A stretch of DNA of 64,000 bases from Gammaproteobacteria bacterium (GTDB lineage: Bacteria > Pseudomonadota > Gammaproteobacteria > JAADGQ01). Positions 1,774 through 55,471 of this stretch are shown here, piece after piece. Position 1 is the first letter of the stretch. Each line of letters starts with the position of its first letter. The DNA lies in assembly GCA_013152295.1 (NCBI GenBank), contig JAADGQ010000112.1, positions 1,977 through 65,976 on the forward strand, read 5' to 3'. The position numbers were made by a program, and so were the translations under genes. The notes beneath the pieces are model-generated. The model saw nothing but the letters and a program-made list of their open reading frames with translations. It was not told the DNA's origin and ran no database searches.

Positions 1774-2214
1774 ATGACAGAACTCGTTCGCTTCGGCGTC
1801 TCCATCGACGGTGACCTATTGGAGCGCTTTGATGAACTTATTGATCAGAAAGGGTATAAAAATCGCTCTGAAGCGCTACGCGACCTGATTCGTGAGCATA
1901 TGGTCGAAGAGGAGTGGAGTTCAGATCAGGAGACCGTTGGTACCATTACGCTTGTTTACGATCACCACACGCGCGATCTCTCCGCTAACCTCACCCACTT
2001 GCAGCACTCTTTTACCGGGGAGATTATCTCTGTGTTGCATGTTCATTTGGACCACCACAACTGTCTCGAAGTGCTCGTCGTAAAAGGCAAGGGGACATTG
2101 TTGCGTCAACTCGCTGACCAGTTGGCAAGCACGCGGGGTGTCAAACACGGCCAGCTAACTGCTACGACGACTGGCGCCGCCATGCCGGCTTCGGGGCACG
2201 ACCACTCGCACTAG
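1774..2214 (+). CDS. nikR: nickel-responsive transcriptional regulator NikR (ribbon-helix-helix plus ACT-like metal-binding domain)
   Basis: RHH N-terminus ([38 protein letters not shown]). C-terminal domain carries the Ni-site residues ([26 protein letters not shown]). His-rich C-terminus. SD gaggta precedes the ATG. Divergent from xseB and directly upstream of a Nik-type ECF transporter. Confidence 0.85.
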
Positions 2215-2310
2215 TCCGGTGTGCCTTGTGCAGTGCTTGCGTTTATGTCAGTGGCTGGTAGCACGAAATACAAATTAGCATGACCGGCTGTTGACCCGCA
2301 TAGAGCCATA

Positions 2311-2337
2311 GTGTTACTGTTTGTTAAAACGTAGCAC
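2311..2337 (+). promoter_or_regulatory. candidate NikR operator: inverted repeat GTGTTAC-N13-GTAGCAC
   Basis: Imperfect palindrome read directly: gtgttac (2311-2317), a 13-nt AT-rich spacer, then gtagcac (2331-2337; one mismatch to the perfect complement gtaacac). It sits between nikR and the transporter operon and overlaps a possible -35 ttgacc (2291-2296) and -10 region. My recollection is that non-enterobacterial NikR boxes have a GTGTTAC-N13/14-GTAACAC form, but I cannot verify this here. Confidence 0.45.
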
Positions 2338-2388
2338 CGAAAGGCAGTCGCTCCATCCTTACAAACATTTGCGGCTGCCTTGGTAGAA

Positions 2389-2431
2389 CCGGGCGATTTT
2401 TTAGCCCTCTTTTTAATCGCCCGGTTTTTTT
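2389..2431 (+). terminator. stem-loop followed by a T7 run in the leader of the nik transporter operon
   Basis: ccgggcgatt (2389-2398) pairs with aatcgcccgg (2415-2424), a 10-bp stem around a 16-nt loop, followed by ttttttt (2425-2431). It lies 44 nt upstream of the first transporter gene. Confidence 0.5.
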
Positions 2432-2474
2432 ACGTTTTTCGAATACTCCCTTCAAAATACGGTTGCAATAATTA

Positions 2475-3161
2475 ATGAAGAGAAAACGCACGATAACCGG
2501 CTTTTTTTCATTGCGGGGAAACAGGGCTCGCTGCTTTCTCCGATTAACGACCTTCCTGGTTTTTTTTGTCGCCGTGGTGCCTAGCGCGCTTGCGCATAAG
2601 GTCAATCTGTTCGCTTACGCTGAAGGTGACGAGGTCTTTGTCGAAGGCTATTTTGCCGATGGAAAGAAAGCTCAAAAAAGCACTGTTACTGTTTTTGATG
2701 GTAACGTTCTCGTTGCCAAGGGCGTCACTGATGACGAAGGGCTGTTACGCTTTACTCCACCGAAAAAAGTTCCATTAAGGATCACCCTCAATGCCGGTAT
2801 GGGGCATCGGGCTGAATTTCTGCTTGCCGCTGATGAGTGGGGCGATAGCGATGCGAGTAGCGGCGTAGTAACGAATAGACCGCCGACAACCGATAAGTCA
2901 TCGAGTAGTGTAAATGTTGCGCCGACTGTTGATGCAGCCCCCCTCGTCGCAGATGCTTTGCCTCCGGTGAGTCGCGCAGAGCTACACAGTATGATTACAA
3001 AGGCGGTCAAAGAGGCGAATAAGCCGCTTGTCAGAAGCCTTACCGATATGCAGGAGCACGCCTCTTTTTCTCAAATTGTTGGTGGCATTGGTTTTATTTT
3101 TGGCATACTCGGCGCTGCCTTCTATTTTAAAGAGAAGAAGGGAAAAGCTGGCGCTGAATAG
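2475..3161 (+). CDS. bitopic membrane/periplasmic accessory component of the Nik ECF transporter (NikL/NikN/NikK-like)
   Basis: 228 aa. Basic N-terminus plus hydrophobic signal-anchor (FLRLTTFLVFFVAVVPSALA). A beta-rich periplasmic segment (HKVNLFAYAEGDEVFVEGYFADGKKAQKSTVTVFDGNVLVAKGVTDDEGLLRF). An Ala/Pro/Ser/Thr linker. A C-terminal TM helix (IVGGIGFIFGILGAAFYF) with a KEKKGK tail. It is the first gene of the nikM-Q-O operon, a position where NikK/NikL/NikN-type auxiliary subunits occur. Confidence 0.5.
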   Translation: MKRKRTITGFFSLRGNRARCFLRLTTFLVFFVAVVPSALAHKVNLFAYAEGDEVFVEGYFADGKKAQKSTVTVFDGNVLVAKGVTDDEGLLRFTPPKKVPLRITLNAGMGHRAEFLLAADEWGDSDASSGVVTNRPPTTDKSSSSVNVAPTVDAAPLVADALPPVSRAELHSMITKAVKEANKPLVRSLTDMQEHASFSQIVGGIGFIFGILGAAFYFKEKKGKAGAE

Positions 3162-3219
3162 TTGGTCGCTGGACTTCACATTTGAACTTTACGTTTAGGG
3201 AACGGGTGAACAGTTTATT

Positions 3220-3897
3220 ATGCATATCTCTGACGGTATTCTCTCAGCTCCGGTTCTGGCAGCAGGTTTTGCAGGCACTGCCATATTGGCAGCAGCCACT
3301 CTGCGCAAGATGGATATGGATGAAATTCCGAAGATATCCGTTATCACCTCGGTCTTTTTTATCGCCTCGTTGATCCATATTCCCGTTGGCCCCTCAAGCG
3401 TTCACCTTATTTTGAATGGGTTGGTTGGTATTGTGCTCGGCTGGCGAGCGTTTCCCGCCATCATGCTTGGCATTATTTTGCAGACGCTGCTATTTGGCCA
3501 TGGCGGGCTTACTGTCATCGGTGTTAATTCGGTGATGCTGGGTGGCGGCGGTTTGCTTGCTTACATGGTTTGGCAGCTTAGGCATCGCTTTACGCTGCCT
3601 AAAAAGGAGGTTGTGTTCGGTGCGCTGGCTGGCGCAACAGGGATCATCTCATCAGGCATAATACTCGCGCTGGCACTTATCACTACAGGTGACGAGTTTA
3701 TGGCTACTGCCGCTTTTGCACTAGTTGCCCACGTGCCGGTCATGATTGTGGAGGCGATTGTCGTTGGCGCTTGCGCTGGCTACCTTGCTAAAGTGAAACC
3801 GGAGGTGTTAGCTGGGTATATCAGGCCAACACCGAGAGCATCGAAATCGACAGCCAAAGCAGCGGTAGATGGTAAGCAGGACGATACAACTCCTTGA
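3220..3897 (+). CDS. nikM: ECF transporter substrate-capture (S) component NikM/CbiM
   Basis: Begins with MHISDG, the invariant Met-His N-terminus of CbiM/NikM that coordinates the metal. Polytopic membrane protein of 225 aa. No separate or fused NikN domain. Confidence 0.85.
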   Translation: MHISDGILSAPVLAAGFAGTAILAAATLRKMDMDEIPKISVITSVFFIASLIHIPVGPSSVHLILNGLVGIVLGWRAFPAIMLGIILQTLLFGHGGLTVIGVNSVMLGGGGLLAYMVWQLRHRFTLPKKEVVFGALAGATGIISSGIILALALITTGDEFMATAAFALVAHVPVMIVEAIVVGACAGYLAKVKPEVLAGYIRPTPRASKSTAKAAVDGKQDDTTP

Positions 3898-3930
3898 ATG
3901 CAGCCCACGCTCTAGTCTACGGATTTCACT

Positions 3931-4719
3931 GTGCCACTTGATATCGACCGTTACTCCCACCTCGCTTCACCGTTGCAGCGCTGGGATCCCAGGTTTAAGT
4001 TGCTCTCTCTTGGCAGCTTTGCTTTCGGTGTCGCGCTTGTTAAAACACTTCCATTGGCTCTCGTTGCTCTGCTTGTCGCTCTCATTTTACTCAAGCTAAG
4101 CAGCTTGCCTTACCACTTTATTGCGCATGCTATGAAGTGGATTATCTTTTTTCTGTTGCCTTTTTTCTTGATTATGCCGCTGAGCTACCCCGGTGAGGCG
4201 GCTTACCATATCTTGGGTTTGCCGTTCGCGTGGGAGGGGTTGCGGCTCGCCACGCTGATTTTTATCAAAGCCAACGCTATCGTATTGACCACTTTCGCCA
4301 TTTTCGGCTCGTCGCGTTTTGATATATCAATGATTGCACTGCAACATCTTAAATGCCCCAAAGTGCTGGTGCAGATGACTCTGTTTACCTACCGCTACAC
4401 CTTTGTCTTTCTGGAGGAGATGAAGCGTATGCAGGTGGCGATGCGTGCTCGGGGGTTTGTTCTGAAAACGGATATGTATACGCTGCGCACCATGGGCAAC
4501 TTTGTTGGCACGCTGTTGGTGCGCAGTTTTGAGCGCACTGAGCGCGTCTATAACGCCATGCTCTCCAAAGGCTATCAGGGTGAGTTCCATACCTTGGTGC
4601 GATTCAAGTCAGATCGTAGTGATTACATTAAAGCCGTTATCGTGTTGGGTATTACCATCGCATTATTAGTGGGTGATCTGTCGGGAGGCTTTACGCCTGC
4701 GATACAGGGCTGGTACTAG
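3931..4719 (+). CDS. nikQ: ECF transporter transmembrane (T) component NikQ/CbiQ
   Basis: GTG start. 262-aa polytopic protein with the CbiQ signature region (ARGFVLKTDMYTLRTMGNFVGTLLVRSFERTERVYNAMLSKGYQG). Confidence 0.85.
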   Translation: MPLDIDRYSHLASPLQRWDPRFKLLSLGSFAFGVALVKTLPLALVALLVALILLKLSSLPYHFIAHAMKWIIFFLLPFFLIMPLSYPGEAAYHILGLPFAWEGLRLATLIFIKANAIVLTTFAIFGSSRFDISMIALQHLKCPKVLVQMTLFTYRYTFVFLEEMKRMQVAMRARGFVLKTDMYTLRTMGNFVGTLLVRSFERTERVYNAMLSKGYQGEFHTLVRFKSDRSDYIKAVIVLGITIALLVGDLSGGFTPAIQGWY

Positions 4720-4788
4720 TCTCGCCAATGCTCACTTTTTCCGGTGAAAGCCGTTTATTCCAAGCCGCCCAATGCAAAAGGGGGACGC

Positions 4789-5796
4789 GTGTCAGCACCC
4801 ATCGCCATAGAAGTTAAAAATGTATTTTTCACCTATCCCGACGGTCATGACGTACTGAAAGATGTTTCGTGCAGCATCAAGCAGGGCGAGAAAGTTGCGC
4901 TAATTGGCCCCAATGGTGCGGGCAAGTCCACTTTCATGAGTCTGCTTAATGGCGTTGCCATGGCCACCGAGGGTCAGGTATTTATTGATGGTAAAGAGGT
5001 CATTCGCGACAACCTGATCGAAATACGCCGCAGGGTCGGTATCGTATTTCAGGACCCCGACGATCAGCTATTTTGTCCGACGGTCTATGACGATGTTGCT
5101 TTTGGTCCGCTGAATCTTGGGCTTGCAGCAGAAGAGATCGAAGCGCGCATCGAAGAGTCATTGGCGTTGGTTGGGCTGGAGGGGTTTGGTGAGCGCTCTT
5201 CATATCACCTCTCGTTTGGCGAACGCAAACGCTTGGCGTTGGCAACGGTACTCTCTTATCGGCCTGAGATTTTGGTCTTTGATGAACCCTCCACCAATAT
5301 GGATCCACTCAACCGGCGCAAGTTGATAGAGTGGTTGAAGCAGACCGATAAAACCATTCTGCTCTGCACCCATGATCTGGATATCGCTCTGGAGGTCTGC
5401 AGCCGTTGCCTGGTTCTGACCGAAGGCGAAATTGTTGCCAACGGCCCTGCTTCTGAAGTTTTGCATGATAAGCAGTTGCTGGAGTCGAATAATCTGGAGC
5501 TGCCTCTGGCGCTCATCACTCACGAAATACTGCACAATATTCTGCATGCAGAGAAGATGGATGAGGAGCACCGCTCCATCATTGGTGATTTTCTCCACAC
5601 TCACCGTCATGCCCACGGCTCTGATGACCACTTGCACTATCACTTGCATGCTCATCCCCATGATCATGGCCATCTGCACGACCACTCGACGGAATCGCAT
5701 AGCCACCACACGCACGACCACGGTGATGATCCGGCACATGCCAGTATCCCCCATACTCATGAACCAGCAGATCAAACAACCACAGACAAAAAATAG
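4789..5796 (+). CDS. nikO: ECF transporter ATPase NikO/CbiO with a His-rich C-terminal extension
   Basis: Walker A (GPNGAGKST), ABC signature (LSFGERKRLALA), Walker B (LVFDEPST). I prefer the GTG at 4789 because a strong SD aagggggac lies just upstream; the track ORF starts at 4744. The C-terminal roughly 65 aa are extremely His-rich (HTHRHAHGSDDHLHYHLHAHPHDHGHLHDHSTESHSHHTHDHGDD...). Confidence 0.85.
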   Translation: MSAPIAIEVKNVFFTYPDGHDVLKDVSCSIKQGEKVALIGPNGAGKSTFMSLLNGVAMATEGQVFIDGKEVIRDNLIEIRRRVGIVFQDPDDQLFCPTVYDDVAFGPLNLGLAAEEIEARIEESLALVGLEGFGERSSYHLSFGERKRLALATVLSYRPEILVFDEPSTNMDPLNRRKLIEWLKQTDKTILLCTHDLDIALEVCSRCLVLTEGEIVANGPASEVLHDKQLLESNNLELPLALITHEILHNILHAEKMDEEHRSIIGDFLHTHRHAHGSDDHLHYHLHAHPHDHGHLHDHSTESHSHHTHDHGDDPAHASIPHTHEPADQTTTDKK

Positions 5797-6500: not shown

Positions 6501-6533
6501 AAAAAATGGGGCGCACCTTGCGGTGCGCCCCAT
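6501..6533. terminator. hairpin between convergent genes; reads as an intrinsic terminator for the minus-strand giant gene
   Basis: atggggcgcacc (6506-6517), loop ttgc, ggtgcgccccat (6522-6533): a perfect 12-bp GC-rich stem. The A6 run on the plus strand becomes a T6 run directly after the stem on the minus strand. Confidence 0.6.
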
Positions 6534-6552: not shown

Positions 6553-9500
6553 CTAACTGAGGTTGCTTCTCCAGACCCGTGTTGCAGCGATCAGTGTCAG
6601 ACTGATCAGCAGCAGTGGATTGACAGGGCCACCGCCACCGCCACCACTGCTACCATTCGTACTGCTGCCCGTGTTGGAGCTGCTGTCGCCGCTACCGCTA
6701 TTGCCTGCGTTGCCGGAGAGACCGCTGGGATCGACGATGATGCCGTTGACCACGCCGTCGGCGTCATCTGCACTGCCATCGACCAGGGTTATGGTCGCCT
6801 TCTGGCCGTTGTAGCTGACATTGCCATTGAACGGAGTGATGGTTCCATTGGCTTCATCATATTTGTGCCAGCTGCTGTTTTCAGGCAGTACTTCAGGAAA
6901 GTAGACATCAACTTGTACTTCGGCAGGGTTGTTCGCATCAACGGGCAACCCGGTGATGTAGAAGCTGAACAGCCCGAAAGGCAGATCGAGGTCGCTGCTG
7001 GCCGGAGTGTCCCCGCGGGAAAATGAAGAGACACAGTTGATTAAGCCTGCCGAGGTGCGGAAGCCGATCGCACTGGCGCGTTCGGCGTCACGCAGGTTAC
7101 ACATCCCCTCTAGGTCGTCATCGGCACCGTTGTTGTCGGTATCGACAACTTCGTTGATTTCGTAGCGATCATCAACGCCATCGTCATTGGCATCATTGTT
7201 ACTGCCGGAGAGGCTGAAGTTCACTGCAGCTGACCACTCAGACATCAGCTCATTACTATTGTAGTGTCGTGTGCGAGCCCAATAGCTGGTGCCTGGTTTG
7301 AGCAGGCCCAGTGGAACAATCAGGTTGCCACGGCTATCAATATCACGCTCTAGAATGAGCGTGTCAAAGCTCTGGCTGGTGCTGATTTGCCACAATGAGC
7401 CTGCCAGTGCCTGGTTGTCGGGGCCGGTGAACTCACCGCTAAAGGTAAATACCCAGAAGTTATGATTATTACGAACCTCTGATGTCGCGCTCAAGCCGCC
7501 GGGTCGTGCGGGGCGGTGTTGCGCTACCGTGTCGTTACCATTGACTGGATCGCTACCGTAGGCTACTTCGTCGCCATCACTGTCGCCGTCGCCGTCGGAA
7601 TCGCTGTTGTTGGGGTTGCTGCCCAAGGTGAACTCCTCGCGGTCGGTGAGGCCATCGCTATCACTGTCAGCGCTGCCGTCGAGAGAGAGGTCACCGAACT
7701 GCTCAATCTCCCAACTGTCGGTGAGTCCGTCGCCATCGCTATCGTTGGCACTTGGCTGCGCGTCAACAGTGACCGTTACGGTTTTATTGACATTGCCACC
7801 ATCACCGCTGCATGACAGTGTGAAGGTTGCATCCTGAGTTAGTGGTCCGACCGTTTCGGACGAAGCGCCTGCTGTTCTGTTGCCGCTCCAGTCACCGCTT
7901 GCTCGGCAGTTGCTAGCGTCGGTTGCTGTCCAGCTCAGCACAGTGATGCTGTTGAATGCGACATTGCTTGGGTCGGCGCTGAGGCTGAGGGTCGGCATAG
8001 GCGCTGGCGTGGGTGGTGGTGGGGGAGGCGTGGTGGTATCGCCAGGAGGCGTAGAGGACCCTCCTCCCTGACCGCTCTCTATTTTCAGCTGTGGGTTAGC
8101 GGACAGGTCGGAGCTGTTGAGCATGCGATTATGCACTTCAACTGCCAGCACGTTGCTGCCGTTGACCAGGCTGCTAATAGATGCATCCAGATTGAACGCC
8201 TCCGGGGTGGCACTGGCTTCGTTGTTGCCGTTGGCCGGTGTGTTGTTGTCTACTGCGCCGACGGGCATGTTGCCGCGAGCGATCTCTACGCCATTGAGGT
8301 AGGCGACGAAGCCATCATCGAAGTGGATGTTAAGCGCCATACCCGCAACGGATGAGGCGTCGGTAACGCTAAACGTTTTGCGCAGATAGACGCTGAGGTA
8401 GCCGTCCTGCATGTCGTTGAGTACGGTGGCATCATCGTTATCGCCATAGCCGAACCCGCTGGGACCAGAGAGCCATGCAGAGTCATCAAAAGCAGCTGCT
8501 GCCCAATTCGTGCCAGGATTGCTGGTGCCTTTGAAGTAGCGCCAGGTGTCACCAAAATCGATGGCTGTCGTGATTGCTGATGGTGCACCGACTTCAATGC
8601 TGAGGTCTTTGCTGGTTGTGGTGCCAGCGGCATCTGTCAGTGTTATCGCAAAGGCATGCAATCCCATTGTGGTCGCAGTGCCACTGATCAAGCCGCTACT
8701 GGCATTGAGTGATAGCCCCGCAGGCAGTTGGCCACTGCTCACCGACCAGCTCAATGGTGTTTCAGTGCCCACGCCGCTGAGCGTTGCGTTATAAGACTCA
8801 CCCTGTAGTGTGTCTGCCAATACGGTAGTGGAGATCTGTGGTGCTGTGTAGGCGTAAGTTTGAAAGGTGTAGCCCTCTGTAGCCATAGCATTTCCCGATC
8901 CACTCAGATCCTTGGCATCAATGCTCACGGCAACCTGCTTGGTGAAAGCAAAGTTCTGAGGCGGGTTGTAGGTTACCGTATAGGCGCTGGCCGAACCCGT
9001 GACGGTAGTGTTCGGATAGCTGCCTGCTTGCGCGCCGTTGTAGATCACCTGGCCATCTATACGTACCACCAGCGAGTTGATATCAACACCCTCTTCAGCG
9101 TCAGAGATGCGAAACGAGACGTTGCTGTCGACGGCTACTTCGTTCGCACCAGAGAGAGGTGAGCGGTTGGTTACCATGGGTGGAACCGATCCTGGGTTCG
9201 CCGGAAACTCATATGCGCCCACGTCAGCGGAGCCTTGTGAGCGTGAGTTGAGGAAGTAATCGTCATTGAGCACGTTGGGTATATTGGTGCTGCTTGCATC
9301 GATGGCGACGCTGCCTGCCAGCAAGCGAAAATCGAAGTTGCTGGGATCAACAAACAGCGGATCGTTGCTGTCACCGCCGCCGATAGGGTTTTCATCAATG
9401 GAGGGAGCGCCCGCATTCAGGCCGTAGTAGAGGTTATTGGTGAATCGTGCTGTTCCCCAGCCACTGCTCACACCTGATCCAACATATGTATCATTGGTGT

Positions 9501-10974
9501 CCTGACCGTAGTAGACGATGTTGTTAGCGATGATTAAGTTGGCGCTGGTGAGGGTCCAGGTATTCGCAATAATATTATTATGGCTGCCGCTGCGTAGCTC
9601 ACAAAATACGTTGTTGAAGACGCGAAAATTTGAGGGGTTTATGGAGTTGATTCTGAACTCCGAGCCGCCTGCGTTGCAGACAATATTGTTATAAAAATAG
9701 GCATCATCGGTTTTATTGGAGGCATTGATACCGTGTTTGGCCACATTGAGCACCAAGTTGTGGTGCACACGGTAGCCGCGGATGTATTTGCTCAATGATC
9801 CGTAGGATTGAATGCCGTTACCACCCTTGATGTCGTGAATATAATTGTAGGCAACCTCGATATCTTCAACGCTGGTGGGGTCCCCATCGTTATCAAAATA
9901 GATGCCGTGGTTACGTTGACCATCCCCCCAGATGTCGTGGATATGGTTGCCGAAAATCTTTACCCGATTGCCGTTGCCTGCGATACCACCGGAGCGCGCT
10001 GAGCGGCTGGTAGCGTCAGTTTCAAGGGTGAACCAGTCAAACAGTTCGTTATTGATGACGCGCCAATCGTTGGAGCCCCACTGCAGGTTGATGGGGCCTT
10101 CGACGTTTGAGCCGTCACCGCCGGAGATGCGCAGCCCTGCGATGACGATCCAGTGAGCTTCGTTGGCGTTGCCGCGGTTATGAATGCCGCCGGCACGTTG
10201 CGGAAAGATGTGTACGTTTTCTCCGGGGTAGCCAACGATAGATATCGGACCACTACCCAATGTGCCGTCGGGCGCGCTGCCGGAGTTGCCCGTTGTGCGC
10301 AAAAAACGATCGTTAGCGCCTTCGTCTTTCCAGTCACCACCACGCAGCACAATGAAATCGCCCGGACTGACATCATGCCAAACGCCGATGCGATCAGGGG
10401 TTTGCACGCGGCGGAACGGTTTGTTGATGTTGCCTATCTCACCCGTGGCATCATTGCCGTTGAGTGATACGTACCAGATCTTGCCCGGCTGCACGGTGAA
10501 CGTATTGTCACTGTTTGAACTAACGCCGCCGACTTCGACGCGGACCGCACCGCTGCTGACAGCGCCGACCTGAACGGAGATCTGTTGTACGTCGTTGCGG
10601 CCGTAAGAGCTGCCCATGTATTTGTACTCGGCGACCTCCCGACTACCAATATAGACCTTGGTGTTGCTGCCAAGCCCTGAGGGGTCACCCAAATTTATGC
10701 CGAATATGGAGAGGTAGGCGCCGTTGTTGTTTTCACCACCTGAATTGGGGCCGCTGACGACATCGGTGTAGAGCACTTGCGGGGTTCCTGATGCGGCCAG
10801 GGTACTGCTTATGGGTAGCGCAATCAGTAGCAGTGAAGCGAAAAAAACAGCCAAAAAAAACGGCGCATTGGTTACCCCTTGCCTGGTTGCAGAGGGTTTA
10901 ACCAATGCGCCGTTTTGATGAGCGGGTGTTAAGTTGGTGTCAGACTTAACGTTGGTGTGTAACGAAATTTTCAT
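6553..10974 (-). CDS. giant secreted multi-domain protein: signal peptide, parallel beta-helix, cadherin-like Ig, LamG-like jellyroll, Pro-rich linker, Ig-like, Asp-rich Ca-binding repeats, FN3-like, anchor-associated domain, Ser/Gly linker, Gly-run/TM/basic C-terminus
   Basis: 1473 aa. SD gaggaag sits 9 nt before the ATG. Hydrophobic signal segment (FFLAVFFASLLLIALPISSTLAA). Repeated PbH1-type beta-helix rungs (HNLVLNVAKHGINASN, FYNNIVCNAGGSEF, VFNNVFCELRSGSHNNIIANT, IIANNIVYYG, FTNNLYYGLNAG). A putative Ig/cadherin-like segment (LSWSVSSGQLPAGLSLNASSGLISGTAT). A LamG-like segment (LNIHFDDGFVAYLNGVEIARG...LAVEVHN). PPPPPPTPAP linker. DSDGDGLTD and DSDSDGLTD thrombospondin-type-3-like repeats. 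The C-terminus is GGGGGGPVNPLLLISLTLIAATRVWRSNLS. Confidence 0.8.
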   Translation of the reverse strand: MKISLHTNVKSDTNLTPAHQNGALVKPSATRQGVTNAPFFLAVFFASLLLIALPISSTLAASGTPQVLYTDVVSGPNSGGENNNGAYLSIFGINLGDPSGLGSNTKVYIGSREVAEYKYMGSSYGRNDVQQISVQVGAVSSGAVRVEVGGVSSNSDNTFTVQPGKIWYVSLNGNDATGEIGNINKPFRRVQTPDRIGVWHDVSPGDFIVLRGGDWKDEGANDRFLRTTGNSGSAPDGTLGSGPISIVGYPGENVHIFPQRAGGIHNRGNANEAHWIVIAGLRISGGDGSNVEGPINLQWGSNDWRVINNELFDWFTLETDATSRSARSGGIAGNGNRVKIFGNHIHDIWGDGQRNHGIYFDNDGDPTSVEDIEVAYNYIHDIKGGNGIQSYGSLSKYIRGYRVHHNLVLNVAKHGINASNKTDDAYFYNNIVCNAGGSEFRINSINPSNFRVFNNVFCELRSGSHNNIIANTWTLTSANLIIANNIVYYGQDTNDTYVGSGVSSGWGTARFTNNLYYGLNAGAPSIDENPIGGGDSNDPLFVDPSNFDFRLLAGSVAIDASSTNIPNVLNDDYFLNSRSQGSADVGAYEFPANPGSVPPMVTNRSPLSGANEVAVDSNVSFRISDAEEGVDINSLVVRIDGQVIYNGAQAGSYPNTTVTGSASAYTVTYNPPQNFAFTKQVAVSIDAKDLSGSGNAMATEGYTFQTYAYTAPQISTTVLADTLQGESYNATLSGVGTETPLSWSVSSGQLPAGLSLNASSGLISGTATTMGLHAFAITLTDAAGTTTSKDLSIEVGAPSAITTAIDFGDTWRYFKGTSNPGTNWAAAAFDDSAWLSGPSGFGYGDNDDATVLNDMQDGYLSVYLRKTFSVTDASSVAGMALNIHFDDGFVAYLNGVEIARGNMPVGAVDNNTPANGNNEASATPEAFNLDASISSLVNGSNVLAVEVHNRMLNSSDLSANPQLKIESGQGGGSSTPPGDTTTPPPPPPTPAPMPTLSLSADPSNVAFNSITVLSWTATDASNCRASGDWSGNRTAGASSETVGPLTQDATFTLSCSGDGGNVNKTVTVTVDAQPSANDSDGDGLTDSWEIEQFGDLSLDGSADSDSDGLTDREEFTLGSNPNNSDSDGDGDSDGDEVAYGSDPVNGNDTVAQHRPARPGGLSATSEVRNNHNFWVFTFSGEFTGPDNQALAGSLWQISTSQSFDTLILERDIDSRGNLIVPLGLLKPGTSYWARTRHYNSNELMSEWSAAVNFSLSGSNNDANDDGVDDRYEINEVVDTDNNGADDDLEGMCNLRDAERASAIGFRTSAGLINCVSSFSRGDTPASSDLDLPFGLFSFYITGLPVDANNPAEVQVDVYFPEVLPENSSWHKYDEANGTITPFNGNVSYNGQKATITLVDGSADDADGVVNGIIVDPSGLSGNAGNSGSGDSSSNTGSSTNGSSGGGGGGPVNPLLLISLTLIAATRVWRSNLS

Positions 10975-14136: not shown

Positions 14137-14664
14137 TTAAGCAGAGTGGAGGAAGCTAAACAGGGCGATTTCGTAAGAGATGAGCAGCAGATACATGAAG
14201 AAGAAGCCGTGTAGTACGTGCGATACTGAGATCCCTTTGAAATGGAAATTTTTGTGTGCGACGAGAAATATCATACAGACTGCGGTCAGACCGATTTTAG
14301 CGGCGACAAAACTATTTATGCTGATGTCTAGCAGCCCGCTCATGAGAGGGTTGGCTTCGTAAGCGCCGAGCTTGAGCAGTTGCAGGGTGAATGCGGCATC
14401 CGTGCAGGAGAGCAGTAGCACCCCGAGCGTGATAAACAGAAAGCGTTTTTCATAGTGGTCGACGTAACTGTTGATCTGGTCCTCTGTTCTGCGGCCTTGG
14501 CGACGTCGTCCGCGCCATGCAAGCAGATAGAGCAGGCGTGGATATTTGTCGCGGCGGCTGGTCCCGTTGCGCCGCTCTGCTCCGCAGTGGGCCAGTTGTA
14601 GCGACATGGGCGTGGATGATGCTGCTGTCTTACGCCGAGTCGTTGATAATTTCAAGAGTGCCAT
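14137..14664 (-). CDS. small polytopic membrane protein with an Arg-rich N-terminus (hypothetical; contains an E-A-N-P motif)
   Basis: 175-aa ORF. The N-terminal roughly 70 aa are Arg-rich and hydrophilic, followed by 3-4 hydrophobic helices (FLFITLGVLLLS..., IGLTAVCMIFLVAH..., FFFMYLLLISYEIALF) with a GAYEANPLMSG loop. The gene body and its downstream flank are visibly AT-richer than the neighbours. The true start is uncertain. Confidence 0.5.
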   Translation of the reverse strand: MALLKLSTTRRKTAASSTPMSLQLAHCGAERRNGTSRRDKYPRLLYLLAWRGRRRQGRRTEDQINSYVDHYEKRFLFITLGVLLLSCTDAAFTLQLLKLGAYEANPLMSGLLDISINSFVAAKIGLTAVCMIFLVAHKNFHFKGISVSHVLHGFFFMYLLLISYEIALFSFLHSA

Positions 14665-19716: not shown

Positions 19717-20310
19717 ATGCCTGCCATGGATAGAAAAAATTTTGGTTTTTCTCTGATTGAGCTGCTAATCGCGATGGTCTTGGTTGCCATTTTGGCCGCG
19801 ATAGCCATTCCCGGTTACCAGGCGCTGATCAAAGGCAGCCGCATCACCAGCATGACCAATACCTTGTTATCGGATATTCGCCTGGCCCGCAGCGAAGCGA
19901 TCAAGCGCCAGGAGCGTAGCGCTTTGTGCCGCAGCGATAACCCCACAGCGGTGAGCCCGAGTTGCGGCGGCACGGCCAATGACTGGTCGGATGGCTGGTT
20001 GGTCTATGTAGCGGGGCCTACTAATCTCAGCAACCCCTTGATTTACAATGCCGCTACTGACGTATTGCTTAAAGTTGGTTTGCCAGCCGAGCTTGGCATC
20101 ACCATTAAGACGGATGCCGACGCTGATCTGGCACTGCAATTTAATGGGGATGGCAGTAGCGGTGAAATTGACGTTGCTGTCTATGCCATTTGTGATGACC
20201 GTGATGGTGATGGCGACCTGGACAAGGCGTACGGCAGGCAGGTGAATGTCAGTTTGGTGGGGCGTGGTAGTGCCACAGATAATGTGCTGAGCTGTGATGC
20301 ACCGACTTAA
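19717..20310 (+). CDS. fimT: type IV pilus minor pilin, GspH/FimT family
   Basis: Prepilin leader MPAMDRKNFG then FSLIELLIAMVLVAILAAIAIPGYQ, with Glu at +5. First gene of a fimT-pilVWXY1E-type operon. Confidence 0.75.
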   Translation: MPAMDRKNFGFSLIELLIAMVLVAILAAIAIPGYQALIKGSRITSMTNTLLSDIRLARSEAIKRQERSALCRSDNPTAVSPSCGGTANDWSDGWLVYVAGPTNLSNPLIYNAATDVLLKVGLPAELGITIKTDADADLALQFNGDGSSGEIDVAVYAICDDRDGDGDLDKAYGRQVNVSLVGRGSATDNVLSCDAPT

Positions 20311-20322
20311 GGAGCGCATTGA

Positions 20323-20901
20323 ATGAATCCTGGTTTCAACGCAGGTGGTGTGGGTTACGCGCCATATTCAGCGCGCGGTCCGCTACGTTGTGGTTTTCAT
20401 CGTAGCTGCGGGGTGAGCATGATCGAGGTGCTGGTGGCGCTGGTGTTGCTTTCCATTGGGTTGCTGGGGGTGGCTGCCATGCAGACGACGGGTATTCGCC
20501 AGAGCCACGATTCGCAACTGTTGAGCCAGGCGCTGTTACAAGCGCAGGATATGGCCGATAGAATGCGCGCTAATCTGGTAGCGGTACGCGTGGGTGCGTA
20601 TAGCGCCATCGATGGCAGCGCAGCGGCGATGGATTGTGTCGGCACAAACTGCAGCGCGGATAATATTGCGCAGTATGACGCCTATGTGTGGAATTCCGAT
20701 AATGCCACCCGCTTGCCATCGGGGCAGGGCGTAACCGCTTGCACCGATATCAATGCGGCGACGTCGGTTCTTGATGCTGGTTCCAGCTGCGTGATTACTG
20801 TGCGTTGGGATGGCGAACGTAACGGCGCAACGGGCACCGGTTGCAACGCCACTATCGATACGGACCTGAAGTGTGTTCGCCTGAATTTCGTATTGCCATG
20901 A
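20323..20901 (+). CDS. pilV: type IV pilus minor pilin PilV
   Basis: Class-III signal G|VSMIEVLVALVLLSIGLLGVAAMQ, typical of PilV. The leader as called is long (30 aa), so the true start may be a non-ATG codon downstream. Confidence 0.7.
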   Translation: MNPGFNAGGVGYAPYSARGPLRCGFHRSCGVSMIEVLVALVLLSIGLLGVAAMQTTGIRQSHDSQLLSQALLQAQDMADRMRANLVAVRVGAYSAIDGSAAAMDCVGTNCSADNIAQYDAYVWNSDNATRLPSGQGVTACTDINAATSVLDAGSSCVITVRWDGERNGATGTGCNATIDTDLKCVRLNFVLP

Positions 20902-20921
20902 GTCGATTCGAGGGGGTTTCT

Positions 20922-22022
20922 ATGAGGCAGCAATGTCCTCGTCATTTTCCAATGCGGGCTACAAAGAAATTGATGCCTGTACGGTGGCGTCATCAGCGTG
21001 GGCTCTCCCTGGTCGAAATTCTGGTGGCGGTGACGTTAAGCCTGGTGCTGTTAGGTGGATTGGTGCAGATGTTTGCCGGTAGTAAAGATGCCTATCGGCT
21101 GCAGGGCAATATGAATGTGCTCCAGGATAACGGGCGCTTTGCGACCAACATGATCAAATACAGCATTCGCATGGCGGACCACTGGGGCAATGCCGAGAGC
21201 ATTGTGCCAGCAACGACATCAGCAGCACCGGTAGTGATTGGCAGCGGCAACTGTTCGTCGGCCTGGAGTCTGGATATCAACGAAGCGCTGCACGGCTATG
21301 AGGGCGGTGCAACACCACCCGCAGCTGTTGACTGTATCGCGGCGGGGGATTACGTCACCGGTAGCGACATGGTTGTGCTGCGTTATGCGGGGTCAACGGC
21401 CGTGAGTACCGATGTTGTTGATAATAGCGACACGATCTATGTGCGCGGACGGGTCGGTAGTTCGGGGGTGCTGTTCAAGGGCAGTGAAGTGGCTAGTATT
21501 GACTCCGGTTTGCAGCTTTACGAGGCTGCAAACCCTGATCCTGTTGATGTCAGCAACTATCCCTATCGCGTTGAACTCTACTTTATTCGCCCGTGCAGTG
21601 TGAAATTGGGTACGGTTTGCTCTAGTAGTGACGATAGTGGTCAGCCTATTCCTACGTTGACACGTTACACACTGCTACCCAGTGTTGGTGGTGGCGCTGA
21701 TCAGCTCGTTCAGCAGGCGCTGGTTGAGGGCGTGGAGCAGCTGCAGCTGCAGTACGGCATCGATACCGATGGTGACGGATTTACCAATGTTTATGAGACT
21801 GCAGCAAGTCTCGATGTTAATGGTAGCTATAACTGGGATAGCGTTGTCAGTGTGCGCATGGGGTTGCTGGTGCGTACTATTGAACAGGATGGTGCTTACA
21901 CTTCACCGGCCAGTTACAGCTTGCTGGCGGCGAATGACTACACGGTACCCGCAGCACAGAGAAGTTACCATCGGCAGCTCTTTACACAAATTGTTCAGGT
22001 GCGTAACCGGAGCAGAAACTGA
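20922..22022 (+). CDS. pilW: type IV pilus assembly protein PilW
   Basis: HQRG|LSLVEILVAVTLSLVLLGGLVQMF prepilin-like N-terminus characteristic of PilW. Start placed at the ATG after SD gaggggg; alternative ATGs are at 20952 and 20973, and the track ORF starts at 20841. Confidence 0.7.
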   Translation: MRQQCPRHFPMRATKKLMPVRWRHQRGLSLVEILVAVTLSLVLLGGLVQMFAGSKDAYRLQGNMNVLQDNGRFATNMIKYSIRMADHWGNAESIVPATTSAAPVVIGSGNCSSAWSLDINEALHGYEGGATPPAAVDCIAAGDYVTGSDMVVLRYAGSTAVSTDVVDNSDTIYVRGRVGSSGVLFKGSEVASIDSGLQLYEAANPDPVDVSNYPYRVELYFIRPCSVKLGTVCSSSDDSGQPIPTLTRYTLLPSVGGGADQLVQQALVEGVEQLQLQYGIDTDGDGFTNVYETAASLDVNGSYNWDSVVSVRMGLLVRTIEQDGAYTSPASYSLLAANDYTVPAAQRSYHRQLFTQIVQVRNRSRN

Positions 22023-22066
22023 TGCCCACTCTCGATGGTTATTTTGATTATTCAAATGGTGGCACG

Positions 22067-22741
22067 ATGATGAAAAAAGAGCAGAGCGCTATGCGTTGCA
22101 ATCACACTGTTTCCAGGCACCAGTCGGGCTATGTGCTGGTGACCAGCTTGTTGTTCTTGTTAGTGCTGACAATGGTCGCGGTGGTGAGTACGCAGACAAC
22201 AACGCTTGAGCTGCGCATGAGCGCCAACAATGTGGCAAAGGGGCGCGCCCTTGAGTCATCCGAGGCGCTGCGTCATTTTGCTGGCGAAGTAGTGGATGCC
22301 CATACTTTCCACCAGGGTTGGCCTGTTTCGTTGGGCGGGGGCATCCAGGATAAAGAGTTTGGCGTCACTTTTCCCGCAGGTATCAACTTCGTCAACAAGA
22401 CGGATGGCGTGCCCAATAATATGTATCTGCTGGGTAGCAACGGTGCGGGGGAGAACCCGCTGGACCCCTCAACGCTGGTGAACGATATTACCTACCAGGT
22501 TGATGGCAACGGCGATGGTGACCTGGATGACGGCGTGGATATTTCAGCATCTGTTTCGATCTACCGCTTGCCTGCCACGTCAGCCAAAGGTAGCAATATT
22601 GCGATGGTTTCCGGTTATCTGGGGCTGGGTCGCAGCGCTGCCGGTGGTGGCTCCAATATCTACTACCTGTTGCGCAGCACAGGCACCTCGGCCGGTGGTG
22701 CGCGGGCCGTGACCGCTAGTGAGTACCGTTATGTGCCTTGA
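22067..22741 (+). CDS. pilX: type IV pilus minor pilin PilX
   Basis: N-terminus QSGYVLVTSLLFLLVLTMVAVVSTQTT matches the PilX N-terminal domain pattern (QxGxVLIVxLIxLLVLT). Start chosen at MMKKE (22067); the track ORF starts at 22022. Confidence 0.7.
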   Translation: MMKKEQSAMRCNHTVSRHQSGYVLVTSLLFLLVLTMVAVVSTQTTTLELRMSANNVAKGRALESSEALRHFAGEVVDAHTFHQGWPVSLGGGIQDKEFGVTFPAGINFVNKTDGVPNNMYLLGSNGAGENPLDPSTLVNDITYQVDGNGDGDLDDGVDISASVSIYRLPATSAKGSNIAMVSGYLGLGRSAAGGGSNIYYLLRSTGTSAGGARAVTASEYRYVP

Positions 22742-22830
22742 TGTTGGATAGATGTACTGTGGTAGACCGAACCAGTCCCAATACAGCTGCCCTCGGAGTC
22801 AATCGAGAGGCGTTTAGCCAGGAGAGCGTG

Positions 22831-25800
22831 ATGACGTTTGTTAATGCCCGCTTAGCGGGTTTTTTGAAGGGCATGCTGTTAAGTGTTCTATTTGTCCCTG
22901 TCATCTATACCGTGCCACTGCATGCCGAAGTGTCAGGTGATCGACTGGGCGACTTCACCGTGTATCCGACAGTGACTCCGGAGTCCGTGACGCCGATGGT
23001 GCTGATTGCCGCATCCAACGACCATCAACTCTATTTCAAGGCGTACAGCGACTATCACGATATCGACGAAGATGGTGTTGTTGATAGTAAAGATATCACC
23101 TACAACCATGCTGTCGACTATTACGGCTACTTTGACAGTGGCAAATGTTACAGCTACAGCGGTGATCGCTTTGTGCCCAGCAGTCTGGCTGACAGCAACA
23201 ACTACTGCTCGGGCGCGACGTGGAGCGGCAACTTTCTGAACTGGGCGACAATGGCGCGCATTGATGCGGTGCGCAGAGTGCTGTTTGGTGGACATCGACG
23301 CATCGATACGGCCGGTAGCACGGTTTTGGAACGCACTTATCTGCCCAACGATGCCCACAGTTGGGCCAAATATTACAGTGGCAGTGATCTGGAAAATTTG
23401 ACGCCGTTTAGCGGGCCGGATATCGCTGACGGCATTACACTCTGCAATACTACCGTCAATAATGGCAGTCTGACCTCACAGAATGTTACCGACCCACCAT
23501 TAGTACGTGTTGCACGGGGTAACTATTCGCTATGGGCAGGGAATGAGCGTTGGCAGTGTCGTTGGAGTGGTGAAAAAAATTCATCAAATGGCAATGACCC
23601 GGCCAAGTCTGGCATTAACGCCAGTGCGTCGAGCCCGAGCCTGGATGACGACGGACTGGGCGGCGGGGATTATACGGTGCGCGTTGAGGTCTGTGTCTCC
23701 TCCATGCTGGAGGCGAATTGCAAAGAGTACCCGGATGGTAACTACAAGCCGATTGGTCTTCTTCAGCGTTACGGCGATGATGACAAACTGCTGTTCGGTA
23801 TGTTCGCGGGTTCGTATCAGAAGAATAAATCGGGTGGGGTTCTGGTCAGTGACATCGGCAGTATGAGCGATGAAATAAACGTCGATAGCGATGGCACCTT
23901 CAAAAAGGTGGCAGCGACCGCTCAGAATGGCGGGGTTGCCTCGGCTGCCGCCGGGGGCATTATCAATGCGTGGAGTCTCTACCGAATCATTAACTATCGA
24001 TATGGTGGTAGCGGTGAAAATCCCGGTACTTACGGTGTTGATGGTAATAATGCTGATAACTGCAAGTGGGGGCTGAACAGCTTTCCTAATGGCACCTGCC
24101 AGAACTGGGGCAACCCCTTTTCTGAAATCTATCTGAATGCGCTGCGTTATCTGGCGGGACAAAATCCGACTACACAGTTCAGTACCAGTGGCACGCCGGT
24201 CATTGATGGTTTGACGACGCCGAGTTCGTGGAACTGCCCGTTAAGTGAGGATAATGCCTGTGCGCGCTTGAGCATCGTCAATATTAACGCCAGCGTGCTC
24301 TCTTATGACGGTGACGAACTCGATGGTGCCGGCTACGGTATCGGTACATTGGGTGCTTCTCAAGACTCTGCACAGTTAACGGATATCGTTGGCGAGGGGG
24401 AGGGTATTCATGGCAACAGCTACTTTGTTGGCGCAAACGGTAGCGATAACAATCAGCTCTGCACCGGGAAAACAGTGAGCAGTCTGGGGGCAGTGGAGGG
24501 CATCTGCCCGGAGGCACCACGACTCGATGGTAGCTACCGCATTGCCGGTCTTGCCCACTGGGCACACACCAATGATATTCGCTCGTCAGACACCGCGAAT
24601 GATGCAGAGTTAGAGGGCACGCAGTCGGTGGATACCTACTCCGTTGTTCTTGCGCCCGCCCTGCCAAAGATCAGCATTCCTGTGCCTGGATCTGCTACCG
24701 CGACTATCTCGATTCTGCCTGCCTGTCAGAGTTTTTATAACGGTGGTTTGGTGGGCAACTGTGCGATCGTCAACTTCCAGATTGTAACGCCATATACGCT
24801 ATCCTCTGACGGTAGCAGTGCGGTCGGGAAATTTTATGTCAACTGGGAAGATAGCGAACAGGGTGGTGACTTCGATAACGACATGTGGGGCACAATAGAG
24901 TACACCATCACTGCGAGTACAGTGGCGGTGACCACCGAAGTACACGACGAAGCGGCTGATTTCAATATGGGGTTTGGCTATGTTATTGGTGGCACGACTC
25001 AGGATGGTTATCACGCCCACTCGGGGATAAACGGTTATAGCTACACGGACCCGACAGGTGTCTCCGCCTGTTCGGGCTGCGAAGAGAGTAACCCAGCGAC
25101 TCGTGTGACCTATGCCATCAATGCCGGAGGTAGTGTCGTGACGCTGCTTGAAGACCCCCTTTTCTATGCGGCGAAATGGGGTAACTTCAACGATAAAAAC
25201 GGCAACGACAAGCCTGATCTGCAGTCGGAGTGGGATGAGCAAGATGCGGATGGTAAAGATAATCCAGACGGCCTTCCTGACAACTATTTTTTGGTGACTA
25301 ATCCACGCAAACTTGAAGATTCACTGCAGCGGGTTTTTGAAGCAGTTTTAGAGAAGACCGCTTCAGGTACGGCAGCCTCGGTTGCCACAGCCAGCCGTGA
25401 GGGAACCGGCGCTGTCTATCAGGCGCTTTACGAAACGACAGTTATCGATTCCGATGCCAGAGAGGCGCGCTGGATTGGCAACGTTCACGCGCTGTGGATC
25501 GACCAGAATGGATTCATGCGCGAAGACGGTGGCGTAAAAGGCAAGCTGGAGGGGTATGACGTCGATCCCGTGATTGAGATCTTTTATGACGCGAACGACA
25601 AGGTCACGCGTGTACGGCGCAAAAGCAGCTCCAGTTCAGGGACGTTCGAGGACTCGGGCTCCTCTGTTGTGCCGCTAAGCGAGCTGAATCCGATCTGGAA
25701 TGCACGCGATCAGCTCTCCGCACTCTCGGCGGCGACGATTGATTCACAGCGCGTCTACGCTTCGCTCGCCAGCGGTGGTCGGCATATTGTGACCTCCTTC

Positions 25801-27627: not shown

Positions 27628-27670
27628 CAATCCAGTAGTAACGATCCAGTAACAAAAAGGAGCATGCGGC

Positions 27671-28156
27671 ATGGTTGATAGCAGAGCATTTGCGCAGCAG
27701 AGAAAAAATAGCGTACGTCTGCAGGGATTTACACTGATCGAGTTGCTGGTCGTTCTGGTGATTATGGCGATTCTGTTGTCGATTGCGGTGCCGGGTTATC
27801 AGACGTACGTCGATCGAACACGACGTGCTGATGCCCAGGCCGCATTAGTGCTGCTGTCTGGCGCTATGGAGCGCTTTTATACGGAAAACAACAGCTATTT
27901 GGGAGCCGCTAACGGCGGCGGGAATACAGGCGCGCCAGGCATCTTTAATACAACGGTGCCGCTGGATGGCGGTACGGCGAACTACAATTTAACGATCAAC
28001 GCCGCTACCGCCACGACCTTTACCCTGCGTGCGACCCCAGTGGGGGTGCAGGATGGCGACGGTTTGCTTGAATATACCAATGCCGGGGTTAGGCGTTGGG
28101 ATAAAAACGATGACGGGGATACGGGCGATGCCGGCGAAGATAATTGGTCGCGTTGA
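27671..28156 (+). CDS. pilE: type IV minor pilin PilE-like
   Basis: RLQG|FTLIELLVVLVIMAILLSIAVPGYQTYVDRTRRADAQAAL, a type IVa pilin N-terminus. Last gene of the minor-pilin operon. Asp-rich C-terminal DKNDDGDTGD loop. Confidence 0.75.
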   Translation: MVDSRAFAQQRKNSVRLQGFTLIELLVVLVIMAILLSIAVPGYQTYVDRTRRADAQAALVLLSGAMERFYTENNSYLGAANGGGNTGAPGIFNTTVPLDGGTANYNLTINAATATTFTLRATPVGVQDGDGLLEYTNAGVRRWDKNDDGDTGDAGEDNWSR

Positions 28157-47701: not shown

Positions 47702-49339
<1,638 letters not shown>

Positions 49340-49343
<4 letters not shown>

Positions 49344-49948
49344 ATTGGTCTGAGCTGCAAAATCTTGACTTGAGCGAGGTGGGAGACTGGCCAGTACCCA
49401 TCAAAACAGGTGCGGTTATTCTTGTTTGTGCTGCGGTGCTCGCTGCAGGTGTGTGGTTTGATGCGCGCGAGCAGATGACAGTTTTGGAGAGCGCTCAAAA
49501 AAAAGAGATCGAAATTAAAGAAGAGTACGAGATTAAGCAGCACAAAGCGGCAAACCTTGAAGATTACAAAGAGCAGATGGTGGAGATGGAGCGTGATTTT
49601 GGCACCATGTTGCGGCAGTTGCCGAGCAAAACAGAGGTTGCGGAGCTGCTGGTTGATATTTCGCAGGCAGGTCTGAGTAACGGCTTGGAGTTTGAGCTGT
49701 TCAAACCTGAACGAGAAAAGCCTATCGAGTTCTACGCAGAATTACCGATAAAAATAGTAGTTAAGGGCTCGTATCATGAGTTTGGCAAGTTTGTCAGTGA
49801 TGTTGTTGCACTGCCCCGTATTGTCACTTTGCAAGATATTTCTATAAAGAAAAAAGATGATAAATCTAAAGAGTTAACGATGAATGCGACGGCGACGACA
49901 TACCGCTACTTTGAGGAAGAGAGTGAAGAGGGCGATGCAGGTGGATAG
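49340..49948 (+). CDS. pilO: type IV pilus inner-membrane component PilO
   Basis: Overlaps the pilN stop (ATGA). Single TM then periplasmic domain, 202 aa. Confidence 0.85.
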
Positions 49949-49960
49949 GGTAAGTCGGTC

Positions 49961-50506
49961 GTGATTTTTCATGCCAATAGAGTGATTATGGTTGGGCTTG
50001 CTGTGAGCGTGCTCTTGCTGAGTGGCTGCGGTGGCGACAACCTGAATGATCTGCGCGATTATGTTGCGGAGGTTCAGTCGCGGCAAAAGGGGCGGATTCC
50101 ACCGCTCCCTGTTGTGCGTCCGTTTGAGCGTTTTGTTTACGACGCTGAAGAGATGCGCGCGCCCTTTGCCAGTTGGTTTGTGGCATTGACAGATGCACCT
50201 GCCGAGAATGGTGAAAGGGATGCTTCTTCCATTCATCCTGATGAGGTACGTAATCGTGAGCCTCTGGAGCGATTTTCGTTGCAGACACTGAGAATTGTTG
50301 GCACGTTGGCTATGGAGAACGAGCGATGGGCTCTGATCAAGTCGCCAAAAGGTATTGTCTCAAGGGTACGACGTGGCAACTATATTGGTCAAAACCACGG
50401 TCAAATCATGCGCATTGATGAGAACGAAATTGAGCTCAAAGAGATTGTGCGGGATGGGCTGGATGGTTGGCAGGAGCGGCAAGTCGTATTGGTACTCGTC
50501 GAATGA
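49961..50506 (+). CDS. pilP: type IV pilus lipoprotein PilP
   Basis: Lipobox LLLSGCGG and PilP-type C-terminal beta domain. Start may be the internal ATG at 49988. Confidence 0.8.
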   Translation: MIFHANRVIMVGLAVSVLLLSGCGGDNLNDLRDYVAEVQSRQKGRIPPLPVVRPFERFVYDAEEMRAPFASWFVALTDAPAENGERDASSIHPDEVRNREPLERFSLQTLRIVGTLAMENERWALIKSPKGIVSRVRRGNYIGQNHGQIMRIDENEIELKEIVRDGLDGWQERQVVLVLVE

Positions 50507-50709
50507 GAGCGGTAGGTTGATAGTGAATGGTCTCTTTTTGGGCTCGGATGACGCGATGCTTGATCGCAATAAAGTACGCCCGCGTGACGGGTCGTGCGAT
50601 ACAAATCACAGGAAATGTTATGCATACGTCGTATTTGGCCTCTGATCTCACCTCTGATCCGAATAGTGCGGTGCACTCGACCTCCCTCCGAGAGAGAGGT
50701 AGTCGCACG

Positions 50710-52905: not shown

Positions 52906-53015
52906 GATTAAATTGTACTGTGCCAAATAGCTGGATGGCATGGTTTGAATAGTAAACTGCAGCACTACAACAGATCAGGTTTTGTAACATGATGATGAAT
53001 GGTTGGAGAGAGACT

Positions 53016-54878: not shown

Positions 54879-54904
54879 CTCATTTCTCGGGCAACCGTGG
54901 TCGT

Positions 54905-55444: not shown

Positions 55445-55471
55445 TTTTTTAACCTTTTTTGTTCCCGGTGT

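Follow-up and report, generated by a model that had tools for sequence, protein, structure and literature searches.

The gene and its C-terminal tail

We analyzed a 64,000-nucleotide stretch (64 kb; called the window throughout) of the 66.7-kb contig JAADGQ010000112.1, from the metagenome-assembled genome (MAG) of an uncultured gammaproteobacterium. The subject is the C-terminal tail of a secreted multidomain protein of 1473 residues, which is encoded on the minus strand at positions 6553–10974 according to the translation of its open reading frame (ORF). A GAGGAAG ribosome-binding site lies 5' of the ATG start. The protein was identified by a 100% match as NOY62941.1 (locus tag GXP10_07310), labeled by NCBI as "MAG: hypothetical protein [Gammaproteobacteria bacterium]." Its C-terminus reads ...SSGGGGGGPVNPLLLISLTLIAATRVWRSNLS and the translated end of the ORF on the minus strand of the window reads ...VDPSGLSGNAGNSGSGDSSSNTGSSTNGSSGGGGGGPVNPLLLISLTLIAATRVWRSNLS, each followed by the stop codon. 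An earlier note on this DNA had described the last 48 codons (6556–6700) as resembling the sorted anchor of a giant protein; the C-terminal sequence it gave is identical to our ORF translation, and at 1473 residues the protein is large rather than giant.

A hydropathy scan of the whole protein shows only two hydrophobic segments, residues 36–62 and residues 1450–1468. The first belongs to the predicted signal peptide region (residues 1–62; 10789–10974, minus strand), which has a long basic n-region, a hydrophobic core at residues 36–58 and a cleavage-type site between TLA and AS. The second belongs to the tail. The protein ends in ...VDPSG-LSGNAGNSGSGDSSSNTGSSTNGSS-GGGGGG-PVNP-LLLISLTLIAAT-RVWR-SNLS, and all parts of this end are encoded on the minus strand. 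A low-complexity Ser/Gly/Asn/Thr linker (residues 1419–1443; 6646–6720), probably unstructured as judged from its sequence, leads into a signature motif (residues 1444–1453; 6616–6645), the proposed cleavage region, which consists of Gly6 (residues 1444–1449; 6628–6645) and PVNP (residues 1450–1453; 6616–6627). It is followed by a Leu-rich core, LLLISLTLIAAT (residues 1454–1465; 6580–6615), predicted to span the membrane by the hydropathy scan. The core has five Leu, two Ile and no Val in 12 residues, with Ile somewhat above what is typical of GlyGly-CTERM tails. The extreme C-terminus (residues 1466–1473; 6556–6579) comprises RVWR (residues 1466–1469; 6568–6579) and SNLS, the four residues between the last Arg and the stop codon. 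The last 55 residues contain no Cys. The tripartite layout that the earlier note had seen, with its linker, Gly run, hydrophobic core and basic residues, is therefore present. The "Arg tail" of that description survives in part: basic residues are there, but they form a weak cluster of two Arg split by VW and then followed by SNLS.

At the DNA level the Gly6 run corresponds to a perfect hexanucleotide repeat, (GCCACC)3 on the plus strand (window 6628–6645). Replication slippage at this repeat could change the length of the run, and among homologues the length varies widely, from 3 to more than 10.

About 20 nucleotides past the stop codon, between convergent genes, folding shows an intrinsic terminator hairpin followed by a U-run (GGGGCGCACC-loop-GGTGCGCCCC; 6501–6532, minus strand), with a fold of −31.4 kcal/mol (z = −6.0). 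Such a strong hairpin and U-run just after the stop argue that the gene end is genuine. The hairpin is GC-rich, has a 10-bp stem and lies between an A-run and a T-run; both convergent genes are therefore probably terminated there. A consensus terminator scan did not report this hairpin, though folding shows it clearly. We also considered a frameshift that might conceal a more canonical tail and rejected it, as no other reading frame yields a different or more canonical tail.

The tail follows a choice-of-anchor U domain and belongs to a homologous family

Residues 1327–1419 (6718–6996, minus strand), directly before the linker, form a choice-of-anchor U domain (NF041766), which bears out the choice-of-anchor domain proposed earlier. 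The match scores 65.4 bits against a cutoff of 32 and covers profile positions 3–90 of 92. The domain is a beta-sandwich that closes with the invariant DADGVVNGIIVDPSG motif, and an AlphaFold2 model is all-beta with a predicted local distance difference test score (pLDDT) of 70–84. From model residue 123 onward, through the linker and tail, pLDDT drops below 50; the model suggests that the linker is probably disordered. The window domain differs in nothing essential from the rest of the family: it scores 65 bits, has the invariant DADGVVNG-I-VDPSG end, and lies directly before a linker and C-terminal anchor, as in its 1499 relatives. The window protein also has a choice-of-anchor Q beta-helix module.

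Those relatives came from a full HMMER search (E ≤ 0.001) in which the query was the C-terminal 175 residues. Among the top 150, 46 have a Gly-run/transmembrane (TM)/basic tail, 42 a CFI-box (GGGCFI...) and three a Gly and Cys tail. In the closest relatives the alignments take in the linker and extend into the tail: for P0001, P0007, P0011 and P0013, phmmer alignments that start from the choice-of-anchor U domain reach as far as query residues 159–171. We built a profile hidden Markov model (HMM) from 43 homologous tails, leaving out the window tail. It scores the window tail at 29.5 bits, which is higher than 63% of family members in a leave-one-out comparison; of 2000 full and 2000 block-preserving shuffles, not one scored as high. 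When 5719 ORF translations (window and 81 loci) were searched with the tail HMM, it matched only choice-of-anchor U C-termini, and within the window it matched no protein other than the 1473-residue one. The Gly columns are invariant or nearly so in the 44 aligned tails, and an x-hydrophobic-(D/N/G)-P-LLL start is common to the window tail, P0036, P0071, P0038 and P0011.

Choice-of-anchor U relatives use at least three tail types: the Gly-run/TM/basic tail, the CFI-box, and a Cys-containing tail of the form GG-C-(S/A/T)-(L/I)...DP(V/I)LPLLLLWSL(F/V)YLMRRR, found in P0015, P0023, P0025, P0029 and P0058. The third type carries a conserved DP-LP motif along with its Cys. Two of 43 scanned tails touch the JDVT-CTERM model (E 0.013), in a scan that left out these five proteins. 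A further variation on the domain is seen in P0006, a 3668-residue representative with a CFI-box and helix at its end, in which the choice-of-anchor U region gives 10 separate matches. This indicates that the domain can also occur as an internal tandem repeat and not only next to an anchor.

When species-representative genomes were scanned with the domain alignment, 80 loci were returned. Of 26 complete choice-of-anchor U proteins from gammaproteobacterial-labeled MAGs, which comprise Thiohalobacter, Ectothiorhodospiraceae, Thioalkalispiraceae, Chromatiaceae and unclassified members, 20 end in the Gly-run/TM/basic tail. Other phyla, mostly Desulfobacterota, have 26 CFI-box tails versus two Gly-run tails. 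This split by lineage suggests that the kind of tail depends on which sorting machinery the host lineage has, in keeping with the name "choice of anchor." Several MAGs have two or three carriers, and the closed MAG chromosome OY970328.1 (L026) encodes a homologue with a GGGSGSIGLLLPALMAGAGLARRR tail.

The second-best relative, P0007 (NOY63571.1), has the locus tag GXP10_10575 and therefore comes from the same MAG as the window protein. It shares 79% identity with the window protein across the beta-helix module and 51% across the last 450 residues, and it ends in GSGSGGGGALALLPLLLVIPALIALRRTRRKVAVLS, so that both module and tail type are the same. The MAG thus encodes a further carrier of the tail type, as the earlier note had expected of a genuine signal; as a paralogue, it is not independent.

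These observations bear on the possibility that the tail is a functionless stretch, a chance or decaying low-complexity run that happens to adjoin a hydrophobic segment. The weak basic cluster would suit such an origin, as would the fact that the tail reaches no curated model (see below). Against it stand the 0 of 4000 shuffles that reach the observed tail HMM score, the conservation of the architecture in the same-genome paralogue and in dozens of MAGs, and an intact frame with a terminator directly after it. We regard a chance origin as very improbable.

Comparison with known C-terminal sorting signals

GlyGly-CTERM proteins have an N-terminal signal peptide, no other TM segment and a tripartite tail at the extreme C-terminus, in which 0–5 residues follow the basic cluster and the core is Leu-rich (Leu 34%) and Val-poor (PMC3237569). 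The window protein shares much with this system (GlyGly-CTERM/RrtA/RssP; TIGR03501, TIGR03902; e.g., VesB of Vibrio cholerae). An N-terminal signal peptide opens the protein, a tail at the extreme C-terminus closes it, and no TM segment lies in between. The tail itself consists of an unstructured Ser/Gly linker, a Gly-rich Cys-free motif, a short Leu-rich helix and basic residues, after which only four residues (SNLS) remain, within the limit of five. Several unrelated or paralogous carriers occur per genome, and homologues' tails pass TIGR03501. The differences are that the window tail scores under TIGR03501 and has two Arg only, split by VW; that PVNP follows its Gly run, whereas in the commonest GlyGly motif, SGGS, hydrophobic residues come directly after; and that neither a cognate rhombosortase nor a type II secretion system was seen within the 64 kb.

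We scanned the whole protein, its C-terminal 65 residues and four fragments of the tail against curated sorting-signal models at a threshold of E ≤ 10. Three related tails served as controls for TIGR03501, which has a cutoff of 15.5 bits: P0001 scores 22.2 bits, P0036 21.7 bits and P0024 16.1 bits. P0036 (GGAIDPLLLALL...RRRK) is instructive, as its tail, GGAIDPLLLALLAGSLVRRRK, passes the model and has a hydrophobic-(D/N)-P-LLL start like that of the window tail. Among the 43 related tails, TIGR03501 picks up 14 at E ≤ 1, with at least three reaching its cutoff, and the SVAGG tail picks up 18 at that same threshold. Since relatives' tails pass TIGR03501, the window tail is linked by homology to trusted instances, and such a link is what Haft and Varghese use as their criterion for biocuration. 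The GlyGly-CTERM assignment of the earlier note holds to this extent, through homology to the tails of P0001, P0036 and P0024, but not for the window tail on its own score.

Several results weigh against a GlyGly-CTERM assignment. The window tail gives no TIGR03501 match in any of the forms scanned and lies outside that defining model; its sole signal is 12–14 bits to the tail end of NF038115, the SVAGG GlyGly-CTERM family. The tail of the paralogue P0007 misses TIGR03501 at E ≤ 1. The basic cluster of the window tail has two Arg only (R-V-W-R), while most homologous tails have RRR or RRRR. Twenty of the 43 related tails weakly touch MYXO-CTERM though they lack its obligatory Cys, from which it follows that short-model matches in the tail region discriminate poorly. 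Finally, no rhombosortase or other rhomboid-family gene was found within the window, either by NCBIfam and Pfam scans of its uncharacterized membrane proteins or by a GlpG phmmer search of all ORFs; nor did the GlpG search, whose power to detect rhombosortases is low, turn up a rhomboid at 10 kb or less from any of the 80 related loci.

Taking both sides together, we read the last ~30 residues as a lineage-divergent GlyGly-CTERM-type sorting signal for surface display via rhombosortase cleavage, with a probability of roughly 0.6. We do not file the tail as a strict TIGR03501 member, because it does not reach the model score and its enzyme is a predicted one.

The tail could instead be a plain C-terminal TM anchor that is never processed, tethering the protein to the inner membrane with a periplasmic ectodomain and calling for no dedicated sorting enzyme. 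The window tail fails every curated sorting-signal model, its basic cluster is weak and the 64-kb window encodes no sorting enzyme, all of which would be expected of a simple anchor. What makes us think it unlikely is that many homologues, though diverged elsewhere, conserve the Gly run and the residues following it, that the tail is exchanged as a unit for the CFI-box in other phyla, which is how a recognized signal behaves, and that homologous tails pass TIGR03501. The thrombospondin type-3 (TSP3) repeats, Ig-like domains and beta-helix of the passenger are, moreover, those of a typical extracellular protein.

Other described signals resemble the tail less closely. MYXO-CTERM (TIGR03901)/myxosortase and the CFI-box (NF041763) share its C-terminal position and Gly-rich lead-in, and homologous choice-of-anchor U proteins in Desulfobacterota have GGGCFI tails. 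Both signals, however, need an invariant Cys. We rejected these two assignments, as the window tail has no Cys and matches neither model. PEP-CTERM (TIGR02595)/exosortase has the same tripartite layout at the C-terminus of Gram-negative secreted proteins, and a variant cut by exosortase, with PVNP in place of Pro-Glu-Pro, might be imagined from the P-x-x-P just before the helix. The spacing is nonetheless P-x-x-P and not P-E-P, and the closest homologues have no P-x-P at all (GGGSVIWTLLL in P0001 and GGGGALALLP in the paralogue). Neither TIGR02595 nor MYXO-CTERM nor any other sorting-signal model matches the window tail at E ≤ 10, and only one of the 43 related tails touches TIGR02595 (E 0.42). 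The NCBIfam and Pfam scans of uncharacterized membrane proteins found no exosortase within the 64-kb window. The PEP-CTERM/exosortase alternative that had been raised for this tail is thus unsupported, and we give it a very slight chance.

Search for the sorting enzyme and secretion genes

The rhomboid searches described above were complemented by a crude multi-TM/GxSG screen of the window and 81 loci, which also found no rhomboid. We sought better rhombosortase queries among candidates from a tblastn search of PLSDB and rejected all three. A 197-residue rhomboid from Ralstonia and a 205-residue rhomboid from A. baumannii score 24 and 37 bits, respectively, against the TIGR03902 (rhombosortase) cutoff of 84 bits, and we passed over a 570-residue Ralstonia rhomboid because its annotated length seemed too great. 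Two window proteins were considered as sorting enzymes and set aside as neither rhomboid nor exosortase: a 175-residue protein with a DUF5658 domain (14137–14664, minus strand) and a 308-residue protein with an LssY_C domain (59764–60690, plus strand).

How these negatives should be read depends on where the enzyme is expected. According to Haft and Varghese, enzyme and target are far apart in genomes with several targets (PMC3237569). The lack of a rhomboid near the targets is therefore not evidence against a rhombosortase, because enzyme-target adjacency is found mainly in single-target genomes. The same authors report that true GlyGly-CTERM tails often score under the general model and that species-specific models are needed (PMC3237569).

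Both points bear on a further possibility, that the tail is a lineage-specific signal of sulfur-oxidizing gammaproteobacterial MAGs, handled by a non-canonical enzyme such as a rhomboid of divergent sequence or a sortase-like protein not yet described. Both tails known from the GXP10 MAG score under TIGR03501, only 14 of 43 related tails touch that model, many related tails have a Pro 3–5 residues past the Gly run (GG-x-hydrophobic-x-P-LLL), and the GlpG phmmer search found no rhomboid gene near any of the 80 related loci. On the other hand, P0036 and P0024, whose tails have the Pro-containing start, pass TIGR03501, and low general-model scores and enzymes remote from multiple targets are both known from true GlyGly-CTERM systems (PMC3237569). 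We consider this possibility rather improbable. Among uncultured, sulfur-oxidizer-like Gammaproteobacteria, choice-of-anchor U proteins commonly bear tails with Pro after the Gly run, and most such tails score under TIGR03501. That the GG-x-hydrophobic-x-P-LLL tails form a separate class of sorting signal with a dedicated enzyme of its own, rather than a drifted GlyGly-CTERM, is a still more doubtful proposition.

No type II secretion genes were found in the 64-kb window. The plus strand does carry a type IV pilus minor-pilin cluster (19717–28156) with a 1629-residue PilY1-like protein containing a PilY1 beta-propeller domain, and a putative pilMNOPQ cluster (47705–52905), assigned by eye from the ORF list. 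Between pilQ (50527–52905) and aroK/aroB (54860–56554) lies a gene (52989–54878, plus strand) for a 629-residue protein with four Big_1 (intimin/invasin-type Ig) domains, the C-terminus of which has no sorting tail. Elsewhere in the window, a putative nikR and cbiM/N/Q/O-type nickel/cobalt uptake cluster (1774–5796, plus strand), also assigned by eye, includes an extra ORF of 228 residues (2475–3161) that weakly resembles alpha-2-macroglobulin MG3 (E 8e-4, below cutoff) and an ATPase ORF with a His-rich C-terminus.

Domains upstream of the tail

The portion of the window protein between signal peptide and choice-of-anchor U domain is made up of several predicted modules, all encoded on the minus strand. 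The first is an IPT-like domain with a right-handed beta-helix module (9193–10800) that ends in a choice-of-anchor Q motif (NF041518; residues 548–590; 9205–9333; 27.4 bits against a cutoff of 25). Relatives are named "choice-of-anchor Q domain-containing protein." The module has a weak match to DUF5123 as well, and a PDB sequence search with it gave no match. It is followed by Ig-like domains found in a Pfam scan (8590–9186), namely Big_5 (residues 597–706, under the gathering score) and He_PIG (residues 722–795). Residues 800–975 (8050–8577) are probably a sugar-binding jelly-roll domain, as suggested by weak PDB sequence matches, the only ones obtained, to beta-galactosidase N-terminal domains (E about 0.07). 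Bacterial thrombospondin type-3 (calcium-binding) repeats (PF18884 TSP3_bac, 49.3 bits) follow in three stretches at 7537–7752.

A scan of the genome collection with the full 1473-residue protein found no relative, and a metagenome scan found relatives on L001 only, a JGI metagenome contig. Two tandem paralogues on this contig (L001:63-2177 and L001:2362-4659) have the IPT-like domain and beta-helix module, with 44% identity to residues 59–594 of the window protein. In both, the module stands behind He_PIG/cadherin-like repeats and the protein ends right after the helix, with neither choice-of-anchor U domain nor tail. The tail-less L001 paralogues suggest that the anchor and the catalytic or binding module are shuffled separately.

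Proposed route to the cell surface and its implications

The mechanism known for VesB and RssP in V. cholerae (PMC13393428) is the source of the path that we propose for the window protein. By analogy with that pair, and on the GlyGly-CTERM-type reading of the tail, the protein would be exported by Sec through its N-terminal signal peptide. The C-terminal helix would then hold it transiently in the inner membrane, with the Gly run in the periplasm and RVWR in the cytoplasm. A rhombosortase, presumably encoded elsewhere in the genome, would cut at the Gly run or immediately behind it and probably attach a glycerophosphoethanolamine-type lipid. A type II secretion system would carry the protein across the outer membrane, and the protein would stay tethered at the cell surface. 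There it would display the beta-helix, which is probably carbohydrate-active, along with the Ig-like, sugar-binding-like and calcium-binding modules. The Ser/Gly linker, being flexible, may keep the folded choice-of-anchor U domain at a distance from the membrane, and the low AlphaFold2 confidence from the linker onward fits such a flexible tether.

For annotation, the general TIGR03501 model misses lineage-specific tails that a small lineage HMM recovers cleanly. Beyond better annotation there is nothing here to surprise a specialist, as signal and domain are both of a known kind. For the organism, a choice-of-anchor U domain together with a GlyGly-CTERM-type tail predicts surface display of a beta-helix/Ig/TSP3 "hypothetical protein" in an uncultured gammaproteobacterium, and recognition of the tail also predicts that a rhombosortase and a type II secretion system are encoded in its genome.

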